This document shows positions 1,519-60,000 of a DNA stretch of 60,000 nucleotides, in pieces (within the stretch, counting starts at the first letter, position 1; the number at the start of each line of letters is the position of its first letter). Both the position numbers and the translations under genes were made by a program. Origin of the DNA: Malacoraja senta (taxonomy: Eukaryota). Location: NCBI GenBank assembly GCA_038087875.1, contig CM075987.1, forward strand, positions 21,578,001 to 21,638,000. Direction: 5' to 3'. Below the pieces are notes generated by a model, which searched no databases, had not been told where the DNA came from, and worked only from the letters and a program-made list of their open reading frames with translations.

Positions 1519-31162
<29,644 letters not shown>

Positions 31163-34160: not shown

Positions 34161-34476
34161 CTAAACCAACCCATCCTCTTCTTTAAAATAAATCCTTTCC
34201 CATGCAACAGTCTTGCATACACAGAAAAACACCCACAAATTCACAAGAATGCCCTGATCAAATGGATTTTCCTCTGAGCTGCAGTGTTTGAGGTAAGAAA
34301 TGCGATGGCGGGACATAAACTCCCAAGTTGTGGTATTGCTGGATACCAGATACAAGTGCGATACCAATAACAGCATAACCACCACGGTGAGAATGATAAT
34401 GATGATGAATGCCAACAGCAGGAATATGTTGATACGGAGCCACTCTTTCCACTCGGTTTCAGTACCAAATCCAGAC
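34161..34476 (-). CDS. ZDHHC12: ZDHHC12 exon 5 (TM, NTTTWEF, NPFD, stop)
   Basis: cag acceptor, TAG stop. Confidence 0.93.
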
Positions 34477-37400
34477 CTGCACATAACAGCAATAATATTT
34501 AGGAATATTATAGATATCAAGCATTGTGCAGTAATTAACTATGCAGAATGATTTCATGCTGATCCTTACCAGGCAATGTGGAAAGCCCACAACAGGACAG
34601 TCAATTGAGAAATTAGGTAGAGCATAAAGAAGCGATGATTTCTCTCCCCCACACAGTTCTCAATCCACGGGCAGTGGTGATCATATCGCCGTACACAGTG
34701 TTGACAGGACTGGCAGTGTTTAGACCGCATGGGTTGCTGCTGAAACAAAGGAAAATCATTAGAATTTATCTTCTAAATCAAATAGAGTGCAAAAATGAGT
34801 TAAGGTTAACCTGAAGTGGAATTATTCAATGTTCTGCCTGCTTCTGTAATACAGAATTGACAGATTGAATCCCACAATATCACTTTAAATTTGCCAAACT
34901 TACTAAATTATTTCAACATTTTAGCATTTACTTTGTTTTACAGAAATAAAATGTCAGATTAGTACCCAATTGAAAATACAGATATATAATAGTTTGATAT
35001 AACAGGCTTATAATTTAACACCAAGTTATATTAAACTGCAATTTCTTGGAGCTCACTTGAACTACTGGAGTTTCCAATTGAATGCAATAAAGAAAAAATG
35101 ATTGCACTTCATGTGATTAATAATTATATTAAATCCAACTAATACAGCTTAACACCTAAGTATTAAGCATTGGTCACCGTTGGAGATACCTCTTTCAGAT
35201 TAGATGTTAAAAGACCATGGCAAAAAATACAGGAATTCTCTTTGATATCCTCCCCATTATTATTTGCTCAACAGCACACTAAAAGCAGATCATCTGAACA
35301 TTTTTTTTTCACTTTGTGTTGTGGGTTTCACTGACATGGTCAGCACTTTATTGACCATTCCTAACTTTGACAGCCTTTCATTGTCAGAGTTATACAGGTC
35401 AGAAACAGGCCCTCCTCTGAATTGTTTTTGGATTTCTTGAGATTTTTATACTGGACTGATACACTTTATTAATACTTTAAAGCTGTACTTTTAGAAAAAT
35501 AAATTCCCACCTGGACCATGCAGTAGCCACAGCGCCTCAATCTCTGGGCTTTCTGTACCACAGGGACCATCTGTTCCTCGTCATCCCAAACACAATGAAT
35601 CGATCGAGACACCTGGGTTTGCAAGGAACCAGCAAAAACCTCAGGAACTGAAAAACTTAATCTTCAAAATAAAATACAGAGCACTATGTTTATTGGAAGA
35701 AAGTGTTAATTTTAAACAAGGGGGTGAATATTTGCAAACACAATCATATGAAGCTACTTGCATTCAGGAAATGCAAATAAGTACATAAGGAACATAAGAC
35801 TCCTAGTAGCAATGGATGAAAATTGTGGGAGAAAGCTCACATGAAACAAAAACATCAACATGAAAGAAAAGCACCAATTGCCAGTTTCTTTGCAATAAGT
35901 TTTGTCTATAGGTGACCCCTCACGTTTTAGAGGGTTGTGTTCCTTGAAAACAGTCTATCCCAATTTTCCGTAACATAAAGCCACGTCATCAGTGCATACG
36001 GCACGAAACACGAGTTTAAAAATATATGGACGTTTATTTACTTTTTCTCCCAGTAAATTCCGTGAGAGCAAATTTTATTCCGTGTCTGATTTGTGACTTC
36101 TGTAAGGGGCAATTCCTGTTACCCAAACAGTCCTAAGGTGGGATCACAAGGAATTGCAGATGCTAGAATCTTGAACAAAACACAAAGTGATGGAATAACT
36201 CAGTGGGTGAGGCAGCATCTGTGGAGAATACTGAAAGGCAATGTTTCGGGTCGGGACTGATTCAGTCTGAAGAAGGGTTCCGACCCGAAACGTGATCTAT
36301 CATGTCCTCCAGAGATGCTGCCTGTCTCACTGAGTTCCACTTGCACTTTGAGCCCTAACATGGGTTGCCTGTAATTTCGGCTCTGGAGCAATATCGTTTC
36401 TACAGGATACAACTTACTTTGGCTACTCACACGGAGGAAAGAATGCAGCTTCAGCTACCTGTGGCATATTGTGCTAGATGGAGCTTGATTTACCTTTAGT
36501 TCATCGTCAAATGTGACGTATCCTGGATCCATGAGGGAGGTGATGAAGTACAGTAACATTGAACAGAGAACGAGCAGGAGGAAGGTTACTGGCTTTAGGA
36601 ACTCGCCACGTTCCTCGCTCTGCTTCAAATCTGTAATTAACAATAACAATTTGCATTCATTCAGCATTTTTCACATGCAAGATGAGCAAAGTGACTCGGG
36701 CAAATAAGTAATGAAAATGTCATATTTTCTCCTGGATGTGGTGAGGATGTTTCCACATGTGGGAAAGTCTAGGATTAAAGGACGTTCTTTTAGTAAGGAG
36801 ATGAGAAATTTCTTTAGTCAGAGGGTGGTGAATCTGTGGAATTCTTTGCCACAGAAGGATGTGGAGGCTGTCAGTGGATATTTTTAAGGCAGATAGATTT
36901 TTGATTAGTACAGGTGTCAGAGGTTAAAGGGAGAAGGCTGGAGAATGGGGTTAGGAGGGAGAGATAGATCAGCCATAATTGAATGGCATAGACTTGATTG
37001 GCCGAAATGGCCTAATTCTATTATTCCTTATGACCTTCTTAGACATTCCTTCAGGATCAGGAATGACATGCTTCTGCTGGAGTTCTGCAGATTTTAGGCC
37101 AGTGTTGCACACATAAACGTTGTCATTAGTGGGGTAAAAGCTGCTTGATATGAAGCTAGTTATACGCTACATAATTTACACTGGGCTTTTGTGTGTTCAA
37201 ATGGATTCTTAAAGCCTTAGCAAATGCTCCTCCATTCTGAGGTCTTGAATCCGATTTTCTCATAAATTGTGGGAAGGAGTAGTGTCTAATCCAGGTTTCA
37301 GGTGGTGGACAAGCGATGTAGCCTGCCCAATCGAGCCAGCACTGTAAATAGGGCTTCAGAGCTGGGAATGTTGGGCTGGAGGGAGATACTAACGTTGGTC

Positions 37401-39048
37401 CATCCAGTTTTGTGCAGTCTATGCATAACGCCTCTTCAGTGCTTTGAAGAGCTTACTGTAGGTTAATTAGGATCAGGTGAATTGTAGTAAATATCTAAAG
37501 GGCTTGACTAAGTAGGAAGAGGTATAGATACCTCCCTGGCTGGAGCATCTAAAAGTAAAGGGCACTGTCTCAAAAGAAGAGGGTTGGTCATTCAGGTAAG
37601 ATATTGTCCTTCAGTCAGAGAGCATAGAATCTTTGGAAAGTAGACAAAAATGCTGGAGAAACTCAGCGGGTGAGGCAGCATCTATTTTTATTTTTTGGAA
37701 ATTGCAAGAGGGAGAGAGGGCTCTTGATCTATTTCTTATGTTAGTAAATAGAGTTGGTCAGAATTTTTTTTGGACAGGATACAGCATTTTTTCCACAATA
37801 TCAGAAAGGCATCGTTATAATGAATCCGATGAATTCAAAAGAGATTTGTTTACTCGGGGGAGACGATGGGGATTCGTCACCCCAGGGAGTGAGTGTTCCA
37901 CAGGGCACTGATTCATGTCAAGGATGATGGATCAAGTTGGGAGGTCAGACATACTGAAAGGTGGGATAAATGGGGAGGGAGCACCCAGAGAAGTCATAAA
38001 TACCCCCACTAATATGTGAATTCACCATACGAAATTGGTTAAAAGCGCAGTTATTGTGCGTTTATGTGAATGTTTGGGGGGGGGGCGGGCGGGTGGGCAA
38101 GTCACTTAAAAAATTAAGTTAATTTCACTAACATAAGTTGTAATATTTCACTGGGATCACCAGTAACCCAAAAGGTATGAACACTATCATAAATGTTTAC
38201 CCTATACGTAACAATTTATAATGAATTTATGATCCCACTGTTTATTGTACGTTTGCAAGGAGGGAGGGCGTCAGTTGTTCGCAGGAACTGCTCCAGTACA
38301 TCGAGCAGGCCGACCGGACTTCGAATAATGGCGCCAAAATTGCTGGTGCCTGCATGAGTAATATATGCAAAAAGAATTTCACCCTGCAGTTGCACATGTG
38401 ACAAATAAAGCACTATTGACTATTGAGGCGGGCGGCACAGTGGTGCAGCGGTAGAGCTGTTGCCTTACTGCGCCGGAGACATGGTTCGATCCTGACCAGG
38501 AATGCTTGTCTATGTTCTCCCCGTTTAAGAAGGAACTGCAGATGCTGGAAAATCGAAGGTAGATAAAAATGCTGGAGAAACTCAGCGGGTGAGGCAGCAT
38601 CTATGGAGCGAAGGGAATAGGAAACGTTTCGGGTCGAGACCCTTCTTCAGACCCTTTCCTTCGCTCCATAGATGCTGCCTCATCCGCTGAGTTTCTCCAG
38701 CATTTTTGTCTACCTATGTTCTACCCGTGATCTGTGTGGGTTTTCTCCGGGTGCTCTGGTTTCCTCCCACACTCCAAAGACGTGCAGTTTTCTGTGGCTT
38801 GGTATAAATGTAAAATTATCCCTAGTGTGTGTAGGATAGTGTTAGTGTGCAGGGATCGCAGGTCGGCGTGGACTTGGTGGGTCTGTTTTCACGCTGTATC
38901 TCTAAACTAAACTACCCACAGACATGATGTTAGACCCACTGACGGCCTCACCCGTTCTGTGCAGGAAGAGAATCAACGTCACCGCCCAGGTGAGCGCCAC
39001 GTGACCGGCCCGCACCGCGAAGCCGGCGGACAGAACCTTCCGGAACAT
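34161..39048 (-). CDS. ZDHHC12: Palmitoyltransferase ZDHHC12, complete, 5 exons (272-273 aa)
   Basis: Exons 38952-39048, 36494-36630, 35511-35612, 34570-34736 (or 34739), 34161-34476 join in frame. N-terminus [42 protein letters not shown] domain [32 protein letters not shown] and NPFD motifs. Confidence 0.95.
34570..34739 (-). CDS. ZDHHC12: ZDHHC12 exon 4 (DHHC motif)
   Basis: tandem cag/CAG acceptor, gtaagg donor. Confidence 0.93.
35511..35612 (-). CDS. ZDHHC12: ZDHHC12 exon 3 (...[10 protein letters not shown])
   Basis: cag acceptor, gtggga donor; CxxC. Confidence 0.9.
36494..36630 (-). CDS. ZDHHC12: ZDHHC12 exon 2 ([14 protein letters not shown]...[13 protein letters not shown])
   Basis: cag acceptor, gtaaat donor; DPG motif. 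Confidence 0.93.
36730..37040 (+). mobile_element. CR1 3' fragment
   Basis: gtggtgaatctgtggaattct and 3'UTR. Confidence 0.75.
38431..38913 (+). mobile_element. HE1-like SINE interrupted by a fold-back Penelope-like element (38525-38713)
   Basis: ggcggcacagtggtgcagcggtaga head, ctaaactaaact tail; nested insert with 15-bp TSD ctatgttct(c/a)cccgt. Confidence 0.8.
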
Positions 39049-39310
39049 TCCAGAGCAATCGCCGGCTCGCCGCTCGCCAACCTCGTGTCTCGGCGGCGTG
39101 CGGCCACCTTCAGCCGCGGCGAGAGCGGAGCGGGCGAAGAGGGACCATCACTGGGACCGGAGCGGGCGAACAACCGCGGTCAGCGCCGCGACCCACCCCC
39201 CCCCCGCCGTCTCCTCGGAGACAGTAACACGGCTGCTCATTGGTGGCGACGCCCCGTTTGGTTGGAGGTAAGATCAGTCCCGGGATCTGCGCTGCCGCCG
39301 GGGACTGGAT
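38940..39310 (-). promoter_or_regulatory. CpG island / ZDHHC12 promoter and 5'UTR
   Basis: Sharp GC and CpG enrichment around exon 1; CCAAT on the minus strand at 39239-39243. Confidence 0.8.
38952..39048 (-). CDS. ZDHHC12: ZDHHC12 exon 1
   Basis: ATG at 39048, G/gtgagg donor, inside CpG island. Confidence 0.9.
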
Positions 39311-40647
39311 CTGAAAATATTATAAACATAACTGGGACTTGATTAACGAAATAGGTTCTCATCTAGTTTTAAAGGGGAGAAATGCTGCAAAAATGTTTGG
39401 GGAACATGAGCAGCACCAGAATAAGAAATACAAAGAATTTGTGGTAAAACCAAACTAAGAGGCAAAGATCCTATAGCCGCTATAGGATCTTTGCTAAAGA
39501 CAGGTACCAAGATTTCTCTCTCCGTCCCTCCCCCTAGTTCTCCGATTAGTTTCACTCGTGTCCCCCTGATTAAATTTACTGATCGCATGCTTCCTTGTCA
39601 GCTTTCCCTCAGCTGGTTTCCATGAACCATTCTACATTTCTTTATCAGCATCTGCTTTGATCTGTAGTTTTCACACCTTACCCCTCCATATCTCTGGTCT
39701 CCTTCTCCCCCCGACTCTAAGTCTAAAGAAGGGTCTCGACCCGAAACGTCACCTATTCCTTCTCTCCAGAGATGCTGCCTGACTAGCTGTTACTCCAGCA
39801 TTTTGTGTCTGTTTTATATTGTAAATAGAACTGGGACTTGATTAACAACAGTGGTTCTCATCTGGTTTTAAAGGGGAGAAATGGCGCAAAGATGTTTGGG
39901 GAAGATTACCAGCACCAAAATAAGAAATACAAAGATTTTTGGTAAAACCGAACTAAGAAGGACCAAGATGTGTGTGCTCCAAACCAAAGTGTATTCGACT
40001 AGTTTAGGGGTAATTAACTACATCTGATTGTGATGTTATTTCTTTACAAAGGGTCAGGAATGGGTTCACAATATGTGCCAGTACAAGGTGCAGAACTGGT
40101 TAAGAGCATTTGCAGTGCTGAAAAGTTTGAGATTAGTTTATTGTCAAGTGTACCGAGGTACAGTGAAAAGCTTTTGTTGCGTGCTAACCAGTCAGTGGAG
40201 AGACAATACATGATTACAATCGAGCCATCCACAGTGTACAGACACGTGATCAAGGGAATAACGAAAAACATTTAGTGCAAGATAAAGTCCAGTATAGTCC
40301 GTTCAAAGATAGTCCGAGGATCTCCAATGAGGTAGATAGTAGTTCAGGAGTGAAGAAGGGTCTTGACCCAAAAGGTCACCCACTCCTTCTGTCCAGAGAT
40401 GCTGCCTGTGATTGTGATGTTATTGCTTAAAAAAGGGCCAGGAATAGGTTCATAATATGTGTCAGTACAAGGTGTCAGACTCGGTACATGAGAGAATCTA
40501 TTTGAGATAATCATTCATTATCAATCCCTTCAGCTTCCTCCTTTAACTCTGGGACTATGGCAGAATCTCAGGGAATGAATGTAATGGATCTACAGGGAAT
40601 ATCAGGATGACGTATATAGATAAACATCAATAAACAAAATATGAAAT

Positions 40648-40653
40648 TTTATT
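40648..40653 (-). promoter_or_regulatory. Candidate polyadenylation signal of the unknown gene
   Basis: AATAAA on the minus strand ending an AU-rich stretch, with T/GT-rich sequence downstream. Confidence 0.45.
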
Positions 40654-42233
40654 TTAAGTTGTAAGAACTTTACATTGTTCCATTTCTGTATTGCAAACAT
40701 ATTCAAGTTACAAAGTCTTCTAATAAAATGAATATTAAATATTTGGTCATAGTTTTGTTTATCATCCAAGTTCCTCTGCAAATCATTCAACACCAAAAAC
40801 CTCCACGTGATTTTTCATTTCATCCATCCAAAAATATAATTTTAGCTCAAATACCCAATAATGCGAGATGGCATCCTGGTAAAACTTGCAGTGTAAGCGA
40901 CAAACGGTGGTATTTCAAACATTGGTGAGCAAAAACTGCTGTATTCAGAAAATTCCATTTTAAAACCCTTCAGTACAGAAGGGTATCACTTGGCCTATTA
41001 CTTCTTTTGTGTTTTACTTTCAAAGCACAATAATCCATTTAGCTCATCTTCCTCTACTCTTTGCTACAGCTTTATCCCTTTCCATGTATTTATCCAATTC
41101 CTTTTTGAATCGGATTCCAGAGCCATTTCAGTCAATATCACAAAGGTTTAGACTTCGGTGCACACTTAGAAGTGCTGAAATATTGGATGAGCTATCTTTT
41201 TTGAAGAGGCATTAAACCCATCCACACTGCCAAGCAAATGTTAGAGTCCTGGGCATTATTTTTAACAGGAAGGAGGATGGCTATTCCCCCTGTCCTAGCT
41301 AATATTTATCCCTCAAATCCAATAGACACTATTTGATCATTGCATTGTACTTTGGGGGAGAGCTTGCTACTTCAAAATTGGATGCCATAATTCTCACAAA
41401 AGTACATTATATATAGTTCTTTGGCTATAAACCATTGTGGTTCACCAGAGGCTACCAAAAAGGCCGTGTCATTGCAAATCCATTTTACATTAAAAAAATT
41501 AAATACAATCATTGCCACCACCACTTTGTTCCTTTAACCAATTTCCTGGGTGATGAGTAAGGAATAGTCTTTCAATAACCAAGTATCATAAAGAGCAATG
41601 TGATAATGACCATATATCTTTTTTTAAATACTACTGAGTGAGGGATAAATATTGGCCAAAGCACCAGAGAGAATTCCCCAGTTCTTTAGCTACCTGAGGA
41701 GGTCAAGGAAAGAGCGTTCACATCGCGGCCCTGTTTCCACCAATCTTTCCACCACCACGCACAAGAAGCGCAAGACAGACACCATTGTATGCAGATGCAG
41801 AGAAGTGTGTTCAGCTCTGGCTGAACATCTTTTAATCTGTGTGGACTCGATAAGAAGAAGAAGCTACCTGAGAAGTCAGGTTCAATGTCTCTGAAAGCCT
41901 GTGCCTCCAACCACACTACAGTTCTTCTTAATGGGACTAAGAATGTTAGTCCATTCACGGTTTCGGACCTCAAGGCTGAGGCTTGAACCTGTGATCTGAC
42001 AGGGAATGAAACTTGATTGACTTTTATTGCAACACGTAAACAAAATGGGAATGTAGTTTGATACTTGCACTATTGAACCTGGTGCAAAACAAAGACCCTT
42101 TGGAATAATAAATCTGGAAAATGAGGGATGGTCAGTGCATGAGCAGGAACGTGTTGGGTGCCTTGAATTCCTCATCCATGCCCCTTCCAGATCGCAGACA
42201 GAAGGGGATATGTGAGTTGAGGATTAGGGGCTA

Positions 42234-42398
42234 TTACCAAACACACGACATCTCAGATGCAGCATCACTGTTACGGCGGGTTCTTGTTGGGGACCATCCC
42301 ATTTCTGAACGGGCGTCATCTGTGTTTGTCAACTTTGGCCAGCGGCTGTAGCGTTTGGTGGATTGCTTATTATTCCAATTCCGTGGTTTTGTGTTCAT
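42234..42398 (-). CDS. Unknown gene terminal coding exon ([10 protein letters not shown]...SEMSCVW*)
   Basis: gtttcag acceptor, open to TAA; followed by repeat-poor 3'UTR-like DNA. Confidence 0.65.
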   Translation of the reverse strand: MNTKPRNWNNKQSTKRYSRWPKLTNTDDARSEMGWSPTRTRRNSDAASEMSCVW

Positions 42399-45300
42399 CT
42401 GAAACATAAACATCATATTTAACACTTGCCCTCCGAAGAGACTTATGAAAGCAAAGTAGACTGCAATTTAGAAATGTCATTGTATCTATATTTGTCTTCC
42501 TTTCATAATGCTAATGGACCAAAATAATTCAGTTGTGTATATTACACAATATCAAAGACTGGCCATGCTTTCATTTCTCTGCTACCATCGGGAAGAGGGT
42601 ACAAGAGCCTGAAAACTGACCACCAGCTTAAAGAACAGCTTCTTCCCAGCAACCATCAGACTTCTGAACACTGCACAACACTAACCACAGCAACGATAAT
42701 CTTCTATTGACAGTATACGTGGTTGCACAATGGACTTCATTTTTAATATTATCATGGTAACCAAGTACTACGGTTGTTAAGTTATTGTATTTTTGATTAT
42801 TATTGTAAAAAAAAAGTTATTGTATTTTTGATTATTATATATTTACATGTGTTATTGCATTTACAGGTCTGTTAAGCTGCAGCAAGAAATAATTTCATTA
42901 TTCCGTCATAGGTATATATGACAATTAAACATACTGACTCTTGAACTCTTGTTATAAATATATATGCATGTATACATTGGAGCTCAATTTTTAAGTAGAA
43001 ACAAATGTAGGCAATTTGATGGCCTTGAACATGCTTCACCATTTAGTAAAACCTCCACCTCAATTCTACATTCCTATCTAATCCCTATTTCTCAGCCCTG
43101 AATAAATCCAGTGACTGAGCATTCACAGTACTCTAACTAGAGAATTCCAAAGATTTACAATCCTCCAAGTAATTTCTCCTCTTTCCAGATGATAATTGAG
43201 TGACCCATATTCCAAAATTACATGATTAGTTACTAGACTCAGAGCCTCAGTACCATGCCCTACTGAAGTGTTAAATGCTTCAATGAAATTATCTAATTCC
43301 TTAAATTCCAGTGATTACAGATCCATTTTGCTCAATTTGTCTTCAAACGACATCTGCTATATATATCTTGAATAGGATAATTATAGACAATAGACAATAG
43401 GTGCAGGAGTAGGCCGTTTGGCCCTTCGAGCCAGCACCGCCATTCAATGTGATCATGGCTGATAACCCCAATCAGTACCCCGTTCCTGCCTTCTTCCCTG
43501 ACTCCGCTATTTTTAAGAGCCCTATCTAGCTCTCTCTTGAAAGCATCCAGAGAACCTGCCTCCACCGCCCGATGGCAGAGAATTCCACAGACTCACCACT
43601 CTGTGAGAAAAAGTGTTTCCTCGTCTCCATTCTAAATGGCTTACTCCTTATTCTTAAACTGTGGCCCTTGGTTCTGGACTCCCCCAACATCGGGGACATG
43701 TTTCCTGCCTCTAGTGTGTCCAAGCCCTTAACAATCTTATATGTTTCAATGAGATTCCCTCTCATCCTTCTAAACTCCAGAGTGTACAAGCCCGGCTGCT
43801 CCATTCTCTCAGCATATGACAGTCCCGCCATCCCGGGAATTAACCTTGTAAACCTACGCTGCACTCCCTCAATAGCAAGAATGTCCTTCCTCAAATTAGG
43901 GGACCAAAACTGCACACAATACCCCAGGTGTGGTCTCACAAGTGCTCTGTACAACTGCAGAAGGACCTCTTTGCTCCTATATTCGATTCCTCTTGTTATA
44001 AAGGCCAACATGCCATTCGCTTTCTTCACTACCTGCTGTACCTGCATGCTTACTTTTATAGACTGATGTACAAGGACCCCCTTTTCCAAACTTGACGCCA
44101 TTTAGATAGTAATCTGCCTTCCTGTTTTTGCTACCAAAGTGGATAACCTCACATTTATCCGCATTAAACTTCATCTGCCATGCATCTGCCCACTCCCCCA
44201 ACCTGTCCAAGTCACCCTGCATTCTCATAGCATCCTCCTCACAGTTCACACTGCCACCCAGCTTTGTGTCATCTGCAAATTTGCTAATGTTACTTTGAAT
44301 CCCTTCATCCAAATCATTGATGTATATTGTAAATAGCTGCGGTCCCAGCACCGAGCCTTGCGGTACCCCACTAGTCACTGCCTGCCATTCTGAAAGGGAC
44401 CCGTTAATCCCTACTCTTTGTTTCCTGTCTGCCAACCACTTCTCTATCCATGTCAGCACTCTACCCCCAATACCATGTGCCCTAATTTTGCCCACTAATC
44501 ACCTAAGTGGGACTTTATCAAATGCTTTCTGAAAGCCCAGGTACACTACATCCACTGGCTCTCCCTTGTCCATTTTCCTAGTTACATCTTCAAAAAATTC
44601 CAGAAGATTAGTCAAGCATGATTTCCCCTTCGTAAATCCATGCTGACTCGGACCGATCCTGTTACTGCTATCCAAATGTGCGGCTATCTCATCTTTTATA
44701 ATTGACTCCAGCATCTTCCCCACCACCGATGTCAGGCTAACTGGTCTATAATTCCCCATTTTCTCTCCCGCTTTTCTTAAAAATTAATATTACAATGTAG
44801 AGTATGTGTATAATGTGTTATGTACGTTGCATTATACAGATCTAATGTCTAAAAGCTAGGTATTCTAAAGCAATTCAGTCATGCAGTGAGGTATGTGGAT
44901 TACATTTCTAGCTAGCTGATCTTATCTTATTAATTCCTATTTAAATATTGCTTATATTGTTATAGGAGTGTGGTGCGAGTGGATTTTTCTAAATGGAACT
45001 TCTACCTTTGTTTGCGGAATCACCTGGAGCACTCCATATAACCTTCTATAACATTATTCTATTAAATGTAATGTTAGAAAAATACAGTGCCTATACCCAA
45101 CTGTAGATCTGTATAATTGGGGTTTTGGAGAAGGAGATGGTACATTGTGCCTCAGCTGAAGAACTGAACAACTGGGTTGTAAACCTAACTTGTGATATAT
45201 TATGTAGATAAAAAATAGTTTTACCTGTGGGCTTTGAACACTACAACACCACCACTACTTCAAAAAACCAAGATGTTCTATGGACTGTGTATTTTGTTTG

Positions 45301-48300
45301 CACTACTAACTTTGGTTTTGCACAATTATGACTATCCAGTATTACTGTTACTAACTAATTGCATTATTGATTATTGTATATTTATTGTGGTATTGCCTTA
45401 ATGGTCCTGTTAAACTGCAGCAACTTTACCGCTGCACTGCGGTGCCGCCCCAAATATTTAAAAAACATAAATTTATACCTTAACTTTGACAACATAATTT
45501 TCTCTAACCTGTACAAACACTGCAGTGTTCATCTGAAGTGTCTCCATTCGTTCGTTCATTCTTGCCAGCCAGTCCCCGTGGTCCATGATCAGCAGCTTTA
45601 GGTCATCATTGGACTCCTGGATAAAATCAAACCCAATCTCGCTGCTGGGTGATACAGCCTGAATCCAAGAAAACACAAAACACGTTTCAAACATGGTTCT
45701 ACCCTGATCTGACATGTTAGTTTAATTTAGATACAGCGTGGACACAGGCCCTTCAGCCCACCGAGTCCACGCGGCTAGCGATCGCCCCGTACACTGGCAC
45801 TATACTACACGCTAGGGCCAATTTGCAATCTTTACCAAAGCAAATTATCCTACAATCCTGCACGTCTTTGGACTGTGGGAGGAAACCGGAGCACCCGGAC
45901 AAAATTCACGTACAAACTCCGTACAGACAGCACCCGTAGTCTCTGGTGCTGCAAGGGAGCAACTCTACTGTTATGCCACCGTGCCGCAACACATGGTTGG
46001 AGCATCACCAACACATGGTTCCTACTACATCACCATTTCAACAACTCAGCATAATCATCTTCAACCCCCGAGATAATTTAGGGGGATACAATACATTATC
46101 TGTATTATTTGTCTGCAAATTCAATAATAACATTCAGAAAATACACCGGGTGGCGCTGTATGATGGCAGCCTCGCCTTTTCTTCTTTTGTTGTTTTTAGT
46201 CTTGTTAAATTATGTTTTAGTGTATCTTTAGTTTTGTATTATGTGGGGGGTGGGGGACTTATTTAATCTCTTTCCTCGACGGAGATGCGGCCTAACATCG
46301 AGGAGCTGGCGGCCTCTTGCTGGGGACTGACTTCGGGAGCTCTAACCACGGGGGCATCGTGGAGTTTGCGGTCCCTTGGTTAGGGTCTGACCGAGTTCCA
46401 ACCGCAGGAGTTTCAACCGCCCCGATCGCTTGAGCTTTGATTGCCCCGACGCGGGAGTTTCGATCATCGGCTGCGGAGTTTCGATCACCCTGACTGCGGA
46501 TGGTTCGACTGCCCCTTCCGCGGGAGAATAAGGAGGAACGAAGATAAGATTTTATTTTATTGCCTTCCATCACAGTGAGGAATGTGGGGGAGCGCTGTGG
46601 TGAATGTTTATGTTAACTTTTATGCAGTTGTGTGTCTTCTTGCATTTTTGGTATGGCTGTATGGCAAATCAAATTCCTTGTATGTTTTTACATACTTGGC
46701 TAATAAATTAATTACAAAAAGAATTGGATCAACAATAAAAAAGTAAAACATATCCTTAGCCTTGTAGAAATAACAGAGGGGTGAGGCTGCCTGGATACAT
46801 TTCCATGGAGCTGGCATGGACAAAGTGAGCTGAATGGGCTCTATGTATTCAACTATATTCTATGACTCTATAATCCAATTATTTTAAATATGATGCATGC
46901 TTTGCCACTCCTCGGCTCCCTCTTAGGCACAGGGACAGCATGCACAACGCCAGAAAATGTTTGCTTTACTGAAGGTGGCTCAAGGATTAACATTGGTCAG
47001 GATATCAGTTACAACTCCACAGTTCTTTTTCAATACAGTGCTGTGGTTTCCTTCCACCTGATGAGGCACCTCAGCCCAATGTCTTATTAAATGATGGGAA
47101 CCTCAGGAGCATCTCAGCTTAATGTCTAATTGAAGAATGAGGATTGATCTGGACTGCATTGGTGTGTTCTTGGTCCTTGAAAGTGGCTTAAACACCAAAC
47201 ATTCTGTCTTGGGTAAGTATGTCACTGACACTAAATTGTATCATAACTTCAGTGATTCCGACCCAATTAGACTAGAAAAGTACAGGCAATTATGTTCATT
47301 AATAAAATTAATACTGTCATCCTATAGAATAAGGAATCAAATTCATGCTTTTGGAGCTTTGCAATGGTTCAGGTTTATTATTGTCACATGTAGTGAAAAG
47401 CTTTGATTTGTATGCTATTCAATCTGATCAGATAAAACTATACATAAATACAATCAAGTTAAAAATTCAAATATAATAGGTAGAACAAAGGGGAAGATGC
47501 AGGGTGTGATTATTCACTTGTTCCACCACAGGATTGAAACAAACTGTGGTCAGTAATTTAAAAAAAAGTTAAGTGCATGCTACCTCGCCGATGGAAAGTC
47601 GCAAGTGTTCCAATTTGTCGATCTGGTTCCTTAGTCGATCCTCCAGATCTTTCATCAGAGCCAAATTTTCATCAGTCTTCAGATTTTCCCTCTGAGACAT
47701 CACGATGACCTGCAGGAGGCTGCAAACGAAGTAACTGAATATTGTTCAAAAGCTCTTATGTCTGAAATGTTGGCTACAATTTTAGATACCATCTCCATTT
47801 TGACCTCTCTTTCTCTGGCATAAACTTGAAAGAGACCAAAGCATGTCAGAACTTACCAGTTCTGATGACAGGCCAGAAACTTGTTTTTATCTCTTCACAG
47901 ATAATGTATGACTTGCTGAGTATTTCAAACACTTTCTGATTTTATTTCAAATTGTCACCGTCACACCACCCACACTGTAGCATTCTAGAATGGTTGCTGT
48001 TTTCTTCACTTTTTTTCTCCTCCCCTTCTCCATTTGCAGTCACCTCCGTCGATCTGCAAATAACAAGTATTCTCCACCCCTTCCAGCAGGCGCTGCCACA
48101 CATCTTTCTGCAGACTCCCGATCCGAACCGTCACCTGTCCATTCCCTCCCCAGATGTTGCCTGACCAACTGAATTCTAACACCCCTTTATGTTTTTCTCA
48201 AGTGAATACAGACCCAGTCTCCACCATTTATCTTATTGACCGTCTCCGGTACGGGGTTGGTATTGATGGCACTACCCTGAGCTGGTTTGTCTCCTACCTC

Positions 48301-50287
48301 AAAGATAGGAGTTTCTCTACAAACATAGGCAACTCTTTCTCCTCCCCAGCTAGCCTTTCCTGCGGGGTTCCACAAGGCTCCATCCTAGGCCCCATTCTCT
48401 TCTCCCTGTATATGCTCCCCTAAGGCCTTCATTCAAAGGCACGGCATTTCCTGCCACTGCTATGCAGAGGATACACAGCTCTATCTCCCCCTGAAACCCA
48501 ATACCGATCAAATCTACTCAGCCTTATTCACTGCCTCGAGGATATAAAGTGTTGGATGGCCCAGAACTTCCTCCAACTAAACGAGAGCAAGTCTGAGGTT
48601 ATCCTACTCGGTCCCTCGGACTCCATCAAAACGATAGCAGGCAGCCTTTGAAGCCTTACCCCCTTACTCATACCTCACGTCAAAAACCGTGGCGTGATAT
48701 TTGACTCTGTGTTGAAGTTTGACAAACAAGTCAATGCCGTGGTGAAAGCGAGCTTCTTCCAGCTTCGCACGATAGCTAAAATAAATCCATTCCTCCAATT
48801 CGACGACCTCGAAAAGATCATCCATTCATTTATCTCCTCCCGCCTTGATTACTGCAACTCCCTTTGCACTGGCATCAGCCAATCATCCCTGTCCCGCCTG
48901 CAATTGGTCCAAAACGCCGCAGCGAGACTTCTGACGGGCACCCGAAAAAGGGACCACATCACCCCAATTCTGGCCTCTCTCCACTGGCTCCCAGTGTGGT
49001 TCAGAATCAATTTCAAGCTCCTCCTTTATGTATACAAAGCCCTTAACGGGCTTGCCCCCACCTACATCAAAAATCTGCTAACCCACCATACCACCTCCAG
49101 GTCCCTCAGGTCGGCCGACTTGGGGTTACTGACCATCCTACTGACCGTCTAGGCATAAGCTTAGGGGCGCTTTTGCGGTTGCAGTACCTAGACTATGGAA
49201 CAGCATCCCTCTTCCCATCAGAACTGCCCTGTCCATCAACTCTTTTAACTCGTTTCTTGAGGTCCTCTGAGGGAGCGCTGTATGTATGTATTTATGTATG
49301 TATTGTTGATCTATATACCACTGTTTGTAGCACGTTAGTACCTGCACTGATGTAAAGCACTTTGGTCAACGAGAGTTGTTTTTAAATGTGCTATAGAAAT
49401 AAAATTGACTTGACTTGACTTATCCAGCAAGCCCGTCATCCCAAGAACCAATGTGAAAAGTATATCGGTTTTTAGGTAAGGAGGCTTTTTGACCTTACTT
49501 CTCATTATGCGGCTTATTGTACTGTTTCCTTCACTGGCATATCTATGAAGCACGTTGTGACATTTTACAATAATTTGATTCAGTGGTTTTGTCAAATATC
49601 TGGAAGGTGATAACTGCAACAAACAAAGTGCAATGCATTTATTTATTTTTTAAATTACAAAACAACTGTTTAAAAAAAACTTACAACATAAGTTTCTTAA
49701 GTGCAGTGATAGGAAATAAAAGGGTTTATCGGCAATAATATTATGGGCAGGAGTTCACAAGGTCACTTGTGAATATGCTTGGGTGTCACTTGATACCTCT
49801 TTGCTTGATACAGAGCGAGGGGATGCCATAGGTCCTTGCGGAGAGAAAGCGGGTTTTAAAATCCTAGAGGAAGGACTAGGATTCATTGGGCTCACAGGTG
49901 GAAGCTGAAATTTCATGATTACAAGTACTGAACTCAAGAACACAAACACATTTAAAAAAGCAAAGTGGTACATTGACTAGAAGTACGAAATAAAAACAGG
50001 TAATGCTTTAAACGCTCAGCAGATCGAGCAACTTTAGTAGAGAGAATAAGGGTTACAGTTTCAGGTGAATGGCCTTTCTTATACAACCGTTGCCTGGCTT
50101 CTGTCTTCCTCGCCCGAGCAAATAAAGATCAGCTACATTACAAAACACTTATTATCTGTTATTCAAACATAAAACTTCAACAACAGGTTACCCTAACGCA
50201 CTCACCTGTTGGGGGAAGGGGAAGGTGTTATTTCCTCTGATCGAGACGGCTACTCGTGGTGGTCTTAGATTAGTAATGTCTCCGTCT
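42234..50287 (-). CDS. Unrecognised multi-exon protein-coding gene (Pro/Ser-rich N-part, coiled-coil-like core); 5' end unresolved
   Basis: Exons 50206-50287 (or 50299), 49797-49904, 49494-49613, 47584-47709, 45509-45658, 42234-42398 have AG/GT boundaries, phase-0 joins and no stops until TAA at 42234. Confidence 0.7.
42570..42935 (+). mobile_element. Rex1/Babar-like LINE 3' fragment
   Basis: [11 protein letters not shown] and [12 protein letters not shown] segments. Confidence 0.55.
43383..44780 (-). mobile_element. 5'-truncated CR1 LINE (RT with frameshifts)
   Basis: [24 protein letters not shown]; (CTATTGT)n tail. Confidence 0.9.
45509..45658 (-). CDS. Unknown gene exon ([50 protein letters not shown])
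   Basis: T-rich tract + ttcag, CAG/gttaga donor, 150 nt. Confidence 0.75.
45717..45987 (-). mobile_element. HE1-like SINE
   Basis: tRNA-like head at the right end, V-domain core, ctaaac tail. Confidence 0.8.
46145..46710 (+). repeat. Interspersed repeat with internal degenerate about-23-bp tandem units
   Basis: ccttccatcacagtga module also at about 23460 and 25285; units like gcggagtttcgatc at 46404-46516. Confidence 0.55.
47584..47709 (-). CDS. Unknown gene exon ([42 protein letters not shown])
   Basis: ctcctgcag acceptor, GAG/gtagca donor, 126 nt, heptad-like pattern. Confidence 0.75.
48221..49420 (+). mobile_element. 5'-truncated L2-clade LINE (RT, disrupted)
   Basis: [42 protein letters not shown]; aataaa + (TTGAC)n tail. 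Confidence 0.85.
49494..49613 (-). CDS. Unknown gene exon ([40 protein letters not shown])
   Basis: Strong ttgtttgttgcag acceptor; weak AAG/gtcaaa donor, 120 nt. Confidence 0.55.
49797..49904 (-). CDS. Unknown gene exon ([36 protein letters not shown])
   Basis: tttcag acceptor, GAG/gtatca donor, 108 nt. Confidence 0.6.
50206..50287 (-). CDS. Unknown gene exon ([27 protein letters not shown]); may be UTR
   Basis: Perfect CAG/gtgagt donor; acceptor ambiguous (50287 or 50299). Confidence 0.5.
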
Positions 50288-50639
50288 CTAAATAGTTCAC
50301 TGCAATTGACTACAAGTTGAGTCTCCCAGGGGAATGTGAAGAATTCAACCTCAGTTGGTATTGGAGAAAATCAGGACTGGATACCCTGAACGAACCGGAT
50401 TGAAATGTTTCAATAGCTGATAGGGATTATAATTCATAACCCTAACTTTAAAAAAAATCGCTGGATTGTTGTAAGTATATGCCCTCAACCAGTGCTTTCT
50501 TTGTGGACAAACTGATGCCGGTACACGTATGTATGGCTTGAATGTACTCATGTACAGTATAATCAGACTTAATTGGATAGCACGCAAACAAGAGCTTGTC
50601 ATTGTACTTGATACATGTGACAATATTAAACCAATACCA

Positions 50640-51150
50640 CTGAGGCCACCCTCTCCACTTCCTACACTCAGGAAAAAAATGTAAGCTTATTTTAGCTCAT
50701 TTTGTAGCTCAATCCCTTGAGTTCTGGTAACATCCTGGCGAATCTTTACTGCTCCCTTTCCAGCATGTGACATCCTTCGTATAAGTAGGGCAACCAGGAC
50801 TGCACACAGTACAAGAGAGTTCGAGTTAGATTTAGCTCTTAGGGCTAAGGGAATCAAGGGATATGGGGATAAAACCGGAACGGGGTACTGATTTTGGATG
50901 ATCACTGATTTTGAATGGTGGTGCTGACTCGAAGGGCCGAATGGCCTACTCCTGCACCTATTTTCTACGTTTACTCCAAATCTGAACTCACTAATGTCTT
51001 GTACAGTTGTGGCATATCTCATTTCCTGCACTCAGTACCTTTACCAATGAAGGCAAACACACCAAACACCTTCACCCTGCCTATCCATGTTGCCACTGTA
51101 CACCCAAGTCTCTCTGCTCCACAACACTCCACAGAGACCTTTACCGTGCA
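50640..51150. mobile_element. CR1 fragments (minus-strand piece with a plus-strand 3' tail inserted at about 50820-50970)
   Basis: CR1 3'UTR ggccgaatggcctactcctgcacctattttct. Confidence 0.6.
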
Positions 51151-54100
51151 GATTCTGTCGTAGCTTGATGTACCATCATCTCACTCTTCGTGGAAGTAAT
51201 TTAGGATGTCAAGGGCTAGTTCAGAAAAGGTGTTCATTTTGACAAGTCATAGAGCATCCGGAATTTTGAAAATATCTTGCATCAAGTTCCCATGTGATTC
51301 CAGGAACTGCACATCTCGCTTTGCGTCAGGGGAATGTACTTGCACTGACTCCATTGCTCCTGGATACAAACCTTCTGCTTCTTGTACACTTGATACTTTA
51401 GATGTTTACACTCTGAATTAGAATTCCCTTGCAATTTAGAGTTAGACATCCATTTCTCTGTAACATATTTGCTTCAAAATTAACACATCCTTCAAATACT
51501 ACACCTTTAGAATGCAATTCTTCTGTAGTTATGTTCTTCATTACACCAGAAATGTCTTGGTTTGAGTACCTCTCACAGCTTCTTGATAATATGGCCGTCT
51601 ACTACTCAGTGAGATTGGCCTTTAGCCTGTGTTTGTTGATCTCAGCTTGTATATTTTGGAGGGATAGGAGGAAAGAGGGAAAAGGGTACTGATCCATGCT
51701 CTCCAAACATAATTATTAACATAAGGTAGGCAAAGGCACCTTAGCTGTGTCCCACTGACCAGTTAAATAATACCTTAAAGATGAAAACTCAGATCATGAC
51801 ACTTAAAACATCTGTATTCCAACTAGTCAGCTGATAAAAGACATGGATAGAATAGAACACATTCAGCTTTTCCATTGTGTACCTCCTGTTCATATCACAG
51901 ACTATTCACTGTATACAATATAGACCCACTTCCATTGACTGAAATACAGAGACAAGGAATTGTGAGCTGCATGTCTTCCGTCTTTTTTTTTTAAGTAGCC
52001 AAAGAATAAGAGTACCGATAAACACTTTTCACAACCACAGAGTGTCTCAAAAGGCTTGGTAGTCAATGAAGTAGAAAATATTATTTGTTGGAAATGTTGC
52101 AATCTTCCCTGGGAAATTTGGAATTCTTATCTATAATAGCAGGTATTTGTAAGATATCCTTAACCTCCCATTCTTTCTGCACCCCCTTCTCATCCCCACC
52201 AACACCTTCTTCAAATTGCTTTTGAAATTTGGAAGTGAGCCATTATATTAACTGTCCAAAGAACTCCAGTTCTAAAGGCTGGGAATTCTCTCAAGATGTG
52301 TTAAATCCATTGATGCCAAAACCCATGATAGTGTATGCCATATAGGTTTACACCTAACGTAGACTTGATCACTGGAACATTGGGTTCTCCTTTTCTAAAG
52401 GCTGCAACCAATATTTTCCTGCTTGGTAACTAAAGTCAGGGGGCAGGGATGACTGCTGCATGGTAGATCATGAACTTTGTGCTGGGTTTGAGGACTTCAT
52501 TCTTTTTCTCAAATAGCAAAGCAGCTGTGCTGGCAGAGGTACCAACAACATCACTGCAAATTCCTCCAAATTCACCAGGATGTCAGCAACCTCTTTCAAC
52601 TCAACATCCCCAGCACATAGGCCATGATGTAGTTCAGTTGGCCAGACTCCTGGTGGAGACACACTGCTCTGAGCCTCGCCACTCAGAAAGACAGAATAAA
52701 TCATTCAAAGAAGGTTTCAGAGCCATCTTGAAAGTGTGTAGCATCCCCATCCCCACTAACTCAGAGGTATCACTGCCCATGATCAGTCAAAGGGGAAAAT
52801 AAGTTTTTGTCATTATGCAACTTGATAATACTGCCACAACTTTGGCCATACAAGAAAATTGTGTTTGAACCCAATGTTCAGCGATTAGAAACACTCTAAA
52901 GCCCAGTGTAAATTGAGTGGAAGCAAGTTAGCCTCTATGCCGAGAGGCTGCCCAAGAAGCAGATGCCTAAAGCTTTAGTGGGGTGTGACAAACAGATTCC
53001 TAACTACAGCAGTCTGAACTTCTGGAACACACAATTGCTCTTTTCTCACAACGGTAATAAATATTTTCCTGCTACTAGTTGTTTAATAAAACAAGGATTC
53101 TCAGTGCAGTTGTCCAGCTGTTCCATGTTGACAGTACGCTCGGGAGCTTTTAGACCAGGTAATCACAAGATATACTCCAAAAACAAACCAAGCCTTGGAT
53201 AAGAGAACTCAGGCAAAAATGAGAGTTAGTACAATGATTACAGTTAATATAAATACTGTGTCCTCTTTGATTAAAACACAATGTGCTGGGGTAACTCATC
53301 AGGTCTGGATAGGAGGGAAGGGAATGGAGGGAATGGATAGGCGATGTTTCAGGTCAGGGCCCTTCTTCACTTAAGATTCCAGCATCGGCAGTTCCTTGTC
53401 TCCGCATCTGCTTTGATGCTGGTTATCTATTGTAGACATGTACCATCAGTGGGTGCACTGGCTCTTCATCTCCAGTGTTCAGAACATGGAAGCCCTGGCT
53501 TTGAGAAATATATGAAGTGCGATTGCTTCATTGTGTGACCTGGCCAGGAACAGAAGCACAGCCATGAGGTCTACATAGATGAGTACAGTATGTTTTACAT
53601 CTTCAGCACCCACCTTCACATATAATTTGACAAGCTTTCAATACACGATCATAACTGATTGATGAACATGATACGTGACTGATCATATTAGTTAAATTGC
53701 ATTTTTTAGATTGCCAAGTGAAAGAGCATCCTCGTTCCCCTCATCTTCCCATCAGTCCTTCCAGATTCAATTTGAATCTAGGTAACTTACGAGTGGGTAC
53801 TGGAGGGCAAGTGATGGGGGTGAACAAAAAGCGACAATAAATCTGTTCAGCATTCCCCCAAAATGTAAATGTTATTAAAACAGCAAAGCATATGCCTAAA
53901 TCAACTTACTAAAGATTACTTACACATCACTGAATTGGCACACATTACCCACCAATATTTGCGATTGTGACTCAAATTGGGCAGTTTTCAGTGGAACTAC
54001 TCAGCTCATTTGAGGTCATGCCACTATATTATTTTTGCAATTAAATATATTGTATTGATATTACCCGCCAATTGAGAATGCTGAGTTTGTAATTAGAACT

Positions 54101-54249
54101 GGAACATAAAGAGTCCTTTACAAAGAATAGGTAAGATACAACTTTGCAGCAGACCTACAGACCAGGTTCACAGGCTGGTGATTGAATTATCAGTTGCAAA
54201 AACGGAATATTAGCACACCTACAGGAACAAGTGCCTCAACAACAAATCA

Positions 54250-54255
54250 TTTATT
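54250..54255 (-). promoter_or_regulatory. Candidate ZER1 polyadenylation signal AATAAA
   Basis: About 490 nt after the stop; GT-rich element downstream on the minus strand. Confidence 0.55.
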
Positions 54256-54741
54256 AATTATTCCTTATTTTTCTTAAAAGTTTATAACTGTTGACATTTG
54301 ATTAACTGGCACAGCCCAAAAGATTTCACAATCAAATTTTTTCAAGACAAACCATGGAAGCACAATTTACAAAATGACGGGAAAAGAGTGGAGGGAACAT
54401 GGGACAGGGAGAAAATATAGCCGAAAAGCAAGGGTGGAGGGAAAGAAAATGAGACTCAAATGGCAAGGAGAGATTAAAAGGAAGAATCAAAGTAAAGGTA
54501 AAAGGGATAAAGTGAGAGAAAACGCTAATTCCTTATCCAATAAAAAATGACACGAATTAACATTTTCTTGTGCAACACCAAATATTCTGCTGTGCGTCAT
54601 CTTGACACTGTGTCATGCACAGAGATTCCTCCCTATAATGCATCTGGCGCATTATTGTAGCAGGACATTAAAGTTCCTCAGTGTCTACACAGCACGCTTG
54701 ACAGGAAGTAGTGAGAGTTGGTGAGAGCTTATATTCAGTCT

Positions 54742-54799
54742 TTAACTCGACGTGTCCATCTGCTCCTCTTTAAAGTTCTCACAGAATTTGATGACGTTT
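54742..54799 (-). CDS. ZER1: ZER1 terminal coding exon (NVIKFCENFKEEQMDTSS*)
   Basis: cag acceptor, TAA stop; matches the ZER1 C-terminus. Confidence 0.92.
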
Positions 54800-57700
54800 C
54801 TGTTGGATAGCGAAATAAAAGAGTGATCACTTTCTTGAAACAGATCTGTATATCAACAGTTGCTTTTAATCCAAAGTTGGATAATATTGGTAGAAAATGT
54901 AAAGGAAACTGCAGATGCTGGAAACTGGAAATAAAACCAGAAAATGCTAGAAACACTCAACAGGTTAAGCAGCAGCCGTGGAAAGAGAAATAGTTAACAT
55001 TTTCAGTCCAGGGCCCTCTATTAGATCTGAGTTTCAGCGTTTTCTGTTTCATGATATAACTGAGAGGTGCTTCATCGCGAGGAGTTGTGTCTTCTACACA
55101 CACAGCAATGCCCACCGCCAATTATTGTAAGCTGACATTACACATTACACCCAGCACTACAAAGTGGACACGTAGGTACACAAAAATGCTGGAGAAACTC
55201 AGCGGGTGCAGCAGCATCTATGGAGCGAAGGAAATAGGTAACGTTTCGGGCCGAAACCCTTCTTCAGACTGAATGCTGAATCCATAGATGCTGCTGCACC
55301 CGCTGAGTTTCTCCAGCATTTTTGTGTACCTTCGATTTTCCAGCATCTGCAGTTCCTTCTTTAACAAAGTGGACACGTAATTGTGTTCCTGTTGCTTCAA
55401 CCCGAATCTGATGGATTTACTACCAAGTTTCTTGGAAGATCCATTCCTCACACTGTCTATCTAGTCTGTGAATTTTGTAATCTCAGGGTTTGAACAAGTA
55501 ACCTTTGTAGAACTTGTGGAGTACCCATATTTTAAATTTTTAATCCTTGTTGCCGATGCTTGCAGACTTCAGCCTTCTGAAACATAGCTGTCCATATGAA
55601 ACACGCGAGCTCTGGAAATTCAAATAGACTGACCAATGACCAAGAAATGAAAAATATCCCAAATGGGTTTGGAAACGAGATTGCCAAGCACTGAGAGGCT
55701 GCCAGCAACTTTAATAAAGCAAACGAGTTCCTAGTCTGAATATGTCTGCCAATTTGCGAGTAGCTTTATGAGCTTAACCTTTCCTGATGTTTTATTGTAA
55801 CTCAACTTATTTGAGTTTGGATCCTTGGAATAACTAGTGCAAGATTTGTCTTATGATTCTACGGTGTCACTTGCAGTGTAATGTTAAAAGCTGACCATGA
55901 TAAAATGGAAGAATCAGAATGCAACCTGTCTGGACTGCAACCTCCCTATACAAACTCTGGCTCAAAGGTCTCTGTATGGGACACGTGGTCCTATCTTTGA
56001 GAGTTTCACTTACTTTGCCATCTCTTTGGTCTCTGATCTAGCTGCGTCACTCTCGATCACACCCTTCAGCAGTTCAATTCCATTCTCTTTTATCAACAAT
56101 GTGCAGTATTTCTCAGCTGAAGATTTAAATTAAAAAGCGTTAATTTACAAACTGCTTTCAGCTCAAATTTAGTATCTAATTTTCTGATCCAACATTGGAC
56201 TTCTTTTTTAAAAAGTTATTAAAACGTTTTTATTCCCCAAAATATGTGCATCAAATTCAACATCTGGATTGTTTGCTTGGAGAGAGGAGAGGGGATGGGT
56301 GGGGTGAGATCAGAGGCAGCATTGAGAACTGCACAGTTGAACATTTCCCTCCCCTTCTTTCATTTGTGGGACACATTATTCTGACAATTTCACAGACCAT
56401 ATTTTCCTAGCACAATATACTGCTACTATATTAACAGCACAGACATGACTGGTTGAATGCACTGTATTATTCAACACGTATCTTGCAATTTAGGAACACC
56501 AAGTCTGGTGTGAATTATGCAATTTACTCTTAATAACTCAGCGTTTCATATTTTAAGATGAGTCGCAGGAATGTTATTAGACAAGATCTGACACTGCTCA
56601 TTGATATAGGTTTTATGAAACACCTTAGTGGAAGGAAAGAGAGTTAGAGATAGAATTTCAGAACTTCAGTTGACGACACAACAGCCGGTGGGAGGATGAA
56701 GAACATCAGGGTGTAGAGACACTGGAACTGGATCTGAAGGGTGTACATTGGGGATGTTACAGAAATGAGAAGAATCGTGGCCATGGAAGGATCTTCAAAT
56801 AAAGATTAAAACCTTCTTAGTACTGTAATGGTGATGTTTTTGAACTAGTTGTTCAGAACCCTGGAATAACAAATCCCATCATGAATATTCGTTTGAGAAA
56901 TTAAATTCCATTGCTATTGAAATCCTTGCCTACTCTGCCGTGAACGTTAGAAATATAGAGATACATCACTAAATGTTACTTACGATAGACTGATGTGAGG
57001 TTAAAGAGTGCCCAGGTTGCCCAGTGCTGGCTGACTGGAGCCACTCGCTGAGGAAGAAGGCGCAAGATTGGCTCAAATGATCTGTGGGAGAGAAGGATCA
57101 TCAGCTCAAAAAGTCGTGTGCTCAGAATACTGTCAGTGCCGTAAACATCCCATCACTAGCTAACTAGTCCATCACTAACTCTCCAACCAGCAGACGCTGT
57201 GAGGGTAATAGAAAATTTCTTAACTAACACACACTTCACCACCGCCCCTCTTTATTATGAGCAAAGTGGAAAAAATAATTAATTTGTCAAGTGGATATTT
57301 AACCAAGTCAAAACATACTGTCACTGGATAAAACATCCATCGCTGCCCAAAAAGAGTTTCCAGTGGCCAAAACAACTCTTGCTCTTGCCATAAACTTTCA
57401 ACAGTACACACACTGGCTAAAGCACTGCTGGTCAAAACAGTCTGTGACTATCCTGCCATTGACCAACACAACAGAATGATCTTCGCAAAGCTAATGACGC
57501 ACAATCCCACTGTCCCCACCACCATTCTACAGCCATCCTTAGCTCATGCCAAAGTGAATGATTCCACTTTTCACCTGTAATTAATGTTTCTTCTTGAGTT
57601 CTCATCCCAGCTGGAGATTGCTCGCCACATTCGATCCATCACTTCGACCCGGCGAGGTTCTGCGATGGTCCAGGCTTCGTCTCCATCAAATATGATATGC

Positions 57701-59265: not shown

Positions 59266-59596
59266 CTAGGATTAAGGAAGGTTAAAGAATGAGGAGAAAA
59301 GTAGGATGCATTATAAATGGACAATGAATGTCTGGGGAATTCTAACTTGCTCCTAGACCTTGGGCAGCAAACACTGGGTTCCTAAATCACAACACTACAC
59401 AGTTGAGCTCCAAGATCCTACACCAACAAAAAGTGGTCTCCAGTAACTTCAATTGTTATTTGCTCACAAGATGTGAACAATACTGGCAGTGCCAGCATTT
59501 ATGGCCAATTCTTTCATGTATCACAGAATAATTACTGATGTATCGCCTTAAAATATTACAGACCTGCTGAAGATACACCCAGTGCTGTTGGGTGGA

Positions 59597-59910: not shown

Positions 59911-60000
59911 GTTCCAAGCTTAATGTCTGACAAATTATTTCTGAGTCAGACACGTGCGCGACTTGGGAGGGAAACATACAAATGTGACATCCCTATGACC

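Follow-up and report, generated by a model that had tools for sequence, protein, structure and literature searches.

The genome of the skate Malacoraja senta (assembly GCA_038087875.1, contig CM075987.1) carries a series of open minus-strand segments between a DHHC palmitoyltransferase gene and ZER1, and the question is which of these segments make up a gene, and of what kind. A sequence-only reading of the surrounding 60,000 nucleotides (nt; positions 21,578,001 to 21,638,000, called the window here, with coordinates counted from its first letter) had joined six segments in phase 0 into one multi-exon gene for a protein of at least 222 amino acids (aa), with an SP-rich disordered N-terminal part. 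All six segments are present as described, open in one frame with AG before and GT after them. The evidence set out below corrects the gene model to three coding exons and a product of 143 aa, the orthologue of an unnamed single-copy family of jawed vertebrates. We put the probability of this reading at about 0.85, a figure that covers the gene model and the family assignment, not the mechanism. The locus is thereby placed in a well-conserved and apparently unstudied family that has no domain entry. The parts of the gene are as follows.

47584-47719, minus strand: coding exon 1, with the acceptor at 47719/47720, 19 nt of 5' untranslated region (5'UTR), and then 39 codons from the ATG at 47700-47698 (MSQRENL...SIGE).
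45509-45658, minus strand: coding exon 2, 150 nt or 50 codons, bearing most of helix 2 (a stretch of 32 residues).
42234-42398, minus strand: coding exon 3, the last, 165 nt, made of 54 codons and a TAA stop (42234-42236), encoding a disordered tail and a near-invariant C-terminal motif.
40392-42233, minus strand: 3' untranslated region (3'UTR), with AATAAA at 40648-40653 and contig ends at 40697, 40731 and 40392.

Joined by a script from their coordinates, the three exons give a coding sequence of 432 nt, or 143 codons and a stop, and each is recognized by homologues in tblastn searches (E 1e-8 to 7e-18 for exon 1, down to 1e-26 for exon 2 and down to 6e-28 for exon 3). Nine longer gene models from other species, used as tblastn queries, matched the three 3' segments only, with E values from 1e-8 to 1e-28. 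The 150-nt exon alone retrieved two proteins among three candidates, P0001 and P0002, both of 143 aa and with 100% and 90% identity. In both of these the start is a methionine lying within the 126-nt segment that had been proposed at the position of exon 1, and the proteins continue through the 150-nt and 165-nt segments. With the 143-aa P0001 as query, 81 of 89 candidates were found at E <= 1, most covering 90-100% of the query, and the matches come from sharks, chimaera, coelacanth, bichir, paddlefish, sturgeon, teleosts, frogs and salamanders.

Among the relatives, the cluster members named include the skate Rhinoraja longicauda (LOC144608328, the sole named skate member), the sharks Cetorhinus, Chiloscyllium, Mustelus and Scyliorhinus, and the chimaera Callorhinchus. 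The window protein differs from six of the seven skate-cluster proteins by 3-5 residues (5 from P0001), corresponding to about 97% identity, and three of its residues (G38, N96 and V142) are seen in the window alone when compared with six aligned skate relatives. Identity is about 87% to sharks and 45-73% to chimaera, coelacanth, ray-finned fishes and amphibians, with the teleosts at 45-60%. The family to which the protein belongs consists of entries named "uncharacterized protein LOC...", among them Rhinoraja longicauda LOC144608328, Cetorhinus maximus LOC144685547, Callorhinchus milii LOC103184639, Latimeria LOC106702816, Xenopus laevis LOC108713281 and Oryzias latipes LOC105355212. Most members have 133-150 aa, and they align with the window protein over the full length, with invariant residues and a C-terminal motif in common and identities of 45-98%. 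The similarity to the orthologues of Callorhinchus LOC103184639 and Cetorhinus LOC144685547 runs end to end over some 135-145 aa, and the C-terminus of the window protein is the near-invariant family motif of 21 residues.

A profile built from 27 sequences and searched against 1.84 billion representatives returned 54 proteins at E <= 0.001, and all those inspected belong to this one family, be it as members, fragments or fused models. The named species among the hits are cartilaginous fishes, ray-finned fishes, coelacanth, frogs and salamanders, with no amniote among them, in agreement with the earlier proposal that the gene is missing from mammals. In a tree of 38 rows the sequences resolve into a chondrichthyan group (support 89/60), coelacanth with amphibians (88/81) and ray-finned fishes (99/97). 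Apart from one record, this follows vertebrate phylogeny, as expected for a single-copy orthologue. The exception, a record labelled as the lamprey Lampetra planeri (P0036, on a contig of 30,712 nt), was considered as a cyclostome orthologue and rejected, as it nests within percomorph teleosts (97/92, 97/89) and is probably a teleost contaminant or foreign contig in the lamprey assembly.

These comparisons also bear on the idea of a pseudogene, or of an open reading frame (ORF) that arose by chance or from a transposon, for which one could cite the remnants of long interspersed nuclear elements (LINEs) in the introns and the lack of a Pfam family. Against this, the frame is intact over 143 codons and nearly identical to its skate relatives, teleost homologues of 45-60% identity keep an almost invariant tail, the tree follows the species tree, and the 60-kilobase (kb) window holds no second copy of the region. 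We consider this the least probable of the alternatives weighed here, and close to negligible.

That the three exons are joined in a transcript is shown by contigs of four public sequencing runs (X1, X2, X5 and X6), which were aligned to 40001-60000; the RNA nature of these runs is a guess, as none of the 24 listed runs is recorded as RNA. Stretches that no contig covers carry no weight in the argument. One contig of 973 nt, X6 record 26, aligns to 47589-47719, 45509-45660 (with 0 differences) and 41838-42398, and so joins the three exons at the predicted sites. In X1, X2 and X5, contigs of 965, 985 and 1108 nt have a genomic match that ends precisely at 42398, so that this boundary is found in all four runs. 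Logan contigs that contain the whole protein are 0.9-1.4 kb long, and because none exceeds 1439 nt while the exons cover 5.5 kb of genome, they represent spliced forms. The structure of three exons with the start codon in the first of them is seen for the window and for one relative's contig.

At the other end of the transcript the 3'UTR is about 1.6-1.8 kb long, and the AATAAA on the minus strand at 40648-40653 is where the earlier reading had placed it. The X1 and X2 contigs run some 250 nt past this signal, while the X5 contig stops at 40731 and that of X6 at 40697. A second site, or a 3' end that varies among species, could account for this.

The splicing evidence also decides the choice of acceptor, on which the length of the protein depends. 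Two AG acceptors lie 10 nt apart ahead of the 126-nt segment, the first at 47719 and the second, used in the sequence-only reading, at 47709. The acceptor used by X6 record 26 is 47719, 10 nt upstream of 47709, and a partial gene model from Scyliorhinus reads through the same 10 nt, its likeness to the window reaching 47715 and ending there. Because the exon starts at 47719 rather than 47709, the three 5' segments no longer connect to it in phase 0 as proposed. Those segments are listed here with their reassessment.

50206-50301, minus strand: segment of 82-96 nt (the 82-nt form starting from 50287), with a consensus donor CAG|GTGAGT and no ATG.
49797-49904, minus strand: SP-rich segment of 108 nt, unsupported as coding.
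49494-49613, minus strand: segment of 120 nt with the donor GTCAAA, unsupported as coding and at most a 5'UTR exon.

With the acceptor at 47719, the frame of the 120-nt segment is closed by a stop 16 codons inside exon 1. Joining any one of the three upstream segments leaves an in-frame stop 30-81 nt ahead of the ATG at 47700 and no ATG in the interval; for the segment 50206-50301 the distance to the start codon is 66 nt. The start codon, which had earlier been left undecided, is therefore this ATG, and the protein has 143 residues.

The longer product, of 222 aa or more and SP-rich towards its N-terminus, made from six phase-0 exons with the acceptor at 47709, nevertheless has some points in its favor. 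The six segments are indeed open and bounded by AG and GT, the two acceptors 10 nt apart make alternative use possible, and gene models of 168-226 aa exist for some species. The N-terminal extensions of eight longer models, however, share no conserved column ahead of the core and do not match the upstream segments of the window, and none of the nine tblastn queries touched 49494-50301. The peptide of the 120-nt segment matches no protein of 71-2000 aa, the SP-rich N-terminal part likewise matches no protein, and the 108-nt segment matches the N-terminus of no homologue. In Callorhinchus, NCBI has swapped a 220-aa model for one of 142 aa. Contigs of low depth run unspliced across both proposed splice sites of the 120-nt segment (X2 record 13, 49419-49645) and of the 108-nt segment (X5 record 24, 49784-50036).

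Open phase-0 segments of 80-170 nt between AG and GT are moreover common in this DNA, with 871 on the plus and 1256 on the minus strand of the window, or 15-21 per kb, falling to about 1.8 per kb once a pyrimidine tract and a GTR donor are demanded. Against that background of 15-21 per kb, three such segments within the 2.6 kb 5' of the true exons are no more than would be expected by chance. The three upstream segments are not coding. The proposal of a multi-exon gene thus holds for its three 3' segments, which have homologues and a contig that joins them, and fails for the three at the 5' end, so that we think the longer protein very improbable. One of the three may yet be a non-coding first exon, most probably the segment 50206-50301 with its consensus donor. 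The contig depth in the bin 50006-50672 is about what would be expected if the 5' parts sat on this donor exon, a depth too weak to be used.

Several observations weigh against the three-exon model. As the RNA type of the runs is a guess, a joined contig could in principle derive from a retrocopy in DNA. The four runs cover a share of only 0.13-0.22 of the stretch, and because this share is small, RNA fits better than a DNA retrocopy. All three junctions and the 47719 acceptor are seen in a single listed contig. The mRNA contigs carry 30-149 nt 5' of 47719 (in X5 record 18 at least 149 nt) that were not among the listed pieces, the table of joints being filled with those of transposons; the model therefore stops short of the promoter and of one or more 5' exons. 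A minor isoform that uses the 47709 acceptor may also exist.

This missing 5' end gives some room to another explanation, in which the three exons would be alternative 3' exons or read-through of ZER1 instead of a separate gene. ZER1 lies on the same strand, its last Pfam-matching exon (56013-56129) is about 8 kb upstream, and there is no CpG island between the two genes. What speaks against this is the position of the homologue in bony fishes, where it adjoins EDF1 and not ZER1, as seen in the fused models P0072, P0081 and P0091; there the gene thus retains its identity away from ZER1. Contigs of 0.9-1.4 kb hold the whole 143-aa ORF, and every candidate upstream exon places an in-frame stop ahead of the ATG. 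Read-through of ZER1 is accordingly about as hard to credit as the 222-aa protein, and a separate gene of three coding exons is preferred.

The link to EDF1 also accounts for some misleading database names. The annotations of the sources are uncharacterized or hypothetical, except for P0028, P0046 and P0077, which carry the name EDF1 or the LOC name of another species. Models from bichir and sturgeon (P0091, P0072 and P0081) fuse the gene with EDF1, and two percomorph records (P0028 and P0046) do so by name. These five records (Echeneis, Dunckerocampus, Acipenser and Polypterus-like), filed as "EDF1 isoform" or as MBF1/HTH_3 models, are mergers with the neighboring EDF1, and because gene models merge the two, the gene can be placed directly next to EDF1 in bony fishes. 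Some "EDF1 isoform" records are therefore merged models of two adjoining genes. EDF1/MBF1 itself has no sequence likeness to the window protein: neither of the domains MBF1 (PF08523) and HTH_3 (PF01381) turned up in P0001 or P0002, even with a limit of E <= 10, and both occur only in the fused sturgeon models P0072 and P0081. Within the window no convincing EDF1 exon was found by tblastn (best E 0.010, 32% identity). The gene order thus differs, with the skate gene between the DHHC gene and ZER1 and the bony-fish models adjoining EDF1.

The protein is predicted to consist of two long helices joined by a loop and followed by a disordered basic tail. AlphaFold2, run with the alignment, places the helices at residues 3-41 and 57-90 (predicted local distance difference test, pLDDT, 82-94), in line with the coiled-coil-like product proposed earlier, while the tail from about residue 98 is disordered (pLDDT < 50) and the whole model has a mean pLDDT of 67 and a predicted template modelling score (pTM) of 0.30. 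The last 20 or so residues of the tail hardly vary from sharks to teleosts and frogs. In the 27-sequence alignment 25 columns are invariant, and 11 of these lie within the last 20 residues: W124, R130, R131, S133, D134, A136, S137, E138, S140, C141 and W143. Most enzyme active sites are less strictly conserved than this tail motif. The conservation of the helical part, where the polar residues R22, K29, H32, R34 and H66 are invariant, differs from what an ordinary coiled coil shows.

The two invariant histidines, H32 (47605-47607) and H66 (45578-45580), are at equal distance from the center of the loop and would face each other in an antiparallel hairpin. In such a model they could form a metal or pH-sensing site.

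Searches for known domains and folds returned matches of a general kind. Nothing in Pfam rose above the gathering cut-off for five exon peptides, P0001 or P0002; the best sub-threshold matches were DUF6572 (12.8 bits, cut-off 27) and CCDC138_cc (13.5, cut-off 27.1). Across the 27 alignment members no Pfam family was found in more than 9, all of those found being generic helical families, and Rfam gave 0 matches over the whole window. The best ESM Atlas scores, 0.84 for the 150-nt exon and 0.85 for P0001, were below the level of a lead. A sequence-profile search of the PDB gave flagellin first (E 0.001) and then GCN4-type coiled coils, which are generic, and Foldseek returned a single PDB match at E 8.3.

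A wide structure search with VIA-align gave 33 chains at Z >= 5, none at Z >= 8, and was headed by SYCE3 (synaptonemal complex central element protein 3, PDB 4r3q), a small helix-loop-helix protein and the only one of the first ten rows to span both helices (Z 5.8, root-mean-square deviation 3.3, 69 aligned, model residues 8-86). The identity is 9% and the Z value is in a range common for helical models, no SYCE3 family appeared in the Pfam scans and no match in sequence, and SYCE3 has no counterpart of the conserved tail. The resemblance is one of shape only.

How such a protein might work can be sketched from its motifs. The sequence R128-x-R130-R131-N132-S133 is invariant or nearly so and resembles the sites that basophilic kinases of the AGC/PKA type recognize in substrates and pseudosubstrates, with RRxS and RxRxxS as consensus; a motif match by itself is a weak indication. 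A helical adaptor with a phospho-regulated tail can be imagined, in which the helix-loop-helix would act as an oligomerization or docking module, the tail would be a short linear motif whose state depends on whether the invariant serine of RxRRxS is phosphorylated, and the terminal Cys-x-Trp would offer a docking or lipidation site. We hold this mechanism to be doubtful, and the fact that it draws on sequence motifs and a model of pTM 0.30 only is a point against it.

A broader proposal, which we make tentatively and with slightly less doubt, concerns the family as a whole. It would represent a gnathostome gene, presumably more than 400 million years old, without a Pfam family, a solved relative or a literature, that disappeared on the stem lineage of amniotes and persists as a single copy in cartilaginous and ray-finned fishes, coelacanth and amphibians; its almost invariant tail of about 20 residues may be an undescribed phospho-regulated docking motif, and H32 and H66 a possible metal or pH-sensing site.

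The gene had been called unrecognized, and this is true in part. Automatic annotation already lists the family, as uncharacterized LOC entries, in many fishes and amphibians, but no function, Pfam family or paper was found, and the family appears to be unstudied. Searches by the tail motif, the LOC identifiers, UniProt and locus accessions, or the ZDHHC12-ZER1 synteny retrieved no paper, supplementary tables lying outside the search. Its observed range, anamniote jawed vertebrates only, makes the family a candidate for asking what amniotes lost or replaced.

The neighborhood agrees with a coding gene on the minus strand between the DHHC palmitoyltransferase gene and ZER1, as had been proposed, with exons of both flanking it. 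The arrangement of kinase, DHHC and ZER1-like genes corresponds to the human order PKN3-ZDHHC12-ZER1, on which the names given to these neighbors rest. The other features of the window are given below.

59047-59265, 57574-57855, 56979-57152 and 56013-56129, minus strand: exons of the ZER1-like C-terminal domain, by Pfam matches.
48064-48420, plus strand: weak reverse-transcriptase remnant upstream of coding exon 1 (RVT_1 E 0.0017, below the Pfam cut-off).
43980-44783, minus strand: reverse-transcriptase (LINE) remnant between coding exons 2 and 3 (RVT_1 E 1.6e-16 and 3.9e-11).
34569-34772 and 34164-34538, minus strand: DHHC exons of the flanking gene.
18276-31159, plus strand: protein-kinase and Pkinase_C exons.
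10230-11234, 9169-10251 and 7247-9244, minus strand: LINE ORFs, respectively ORF1 of the GDSL-lipase/esterase type, an endonuclease and a reverse transcriptase (666 aa open).

The reverse-transcriptase ORFs at 43980-44783 and 48064-48420 lie between the segments, which bears out the earlier remark that transposons fall in the introns only. The stretch 39001-39500 is rich in CpG (GC 0.57, CpG observed/expected 1.09) and is the only clear island-like stretch near the gene; it lies about 0.9-1.1 kb beyond the gene's 3' end and is presumably the promoter of the DHHC gene. Upstream, between the gene and ZER1, no CpG island was found. At 52674-54007 the contig depth is like that of the gene's mRNA contigs, and this stretch may belong to a long 3'UTR of ZER1, whose last matching exon ends near 56013, or to something else. 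The LINE at 7247-11234 on the minus strand is nearly complete and precedes the first exon detected in the kinase gene of the plus strand.

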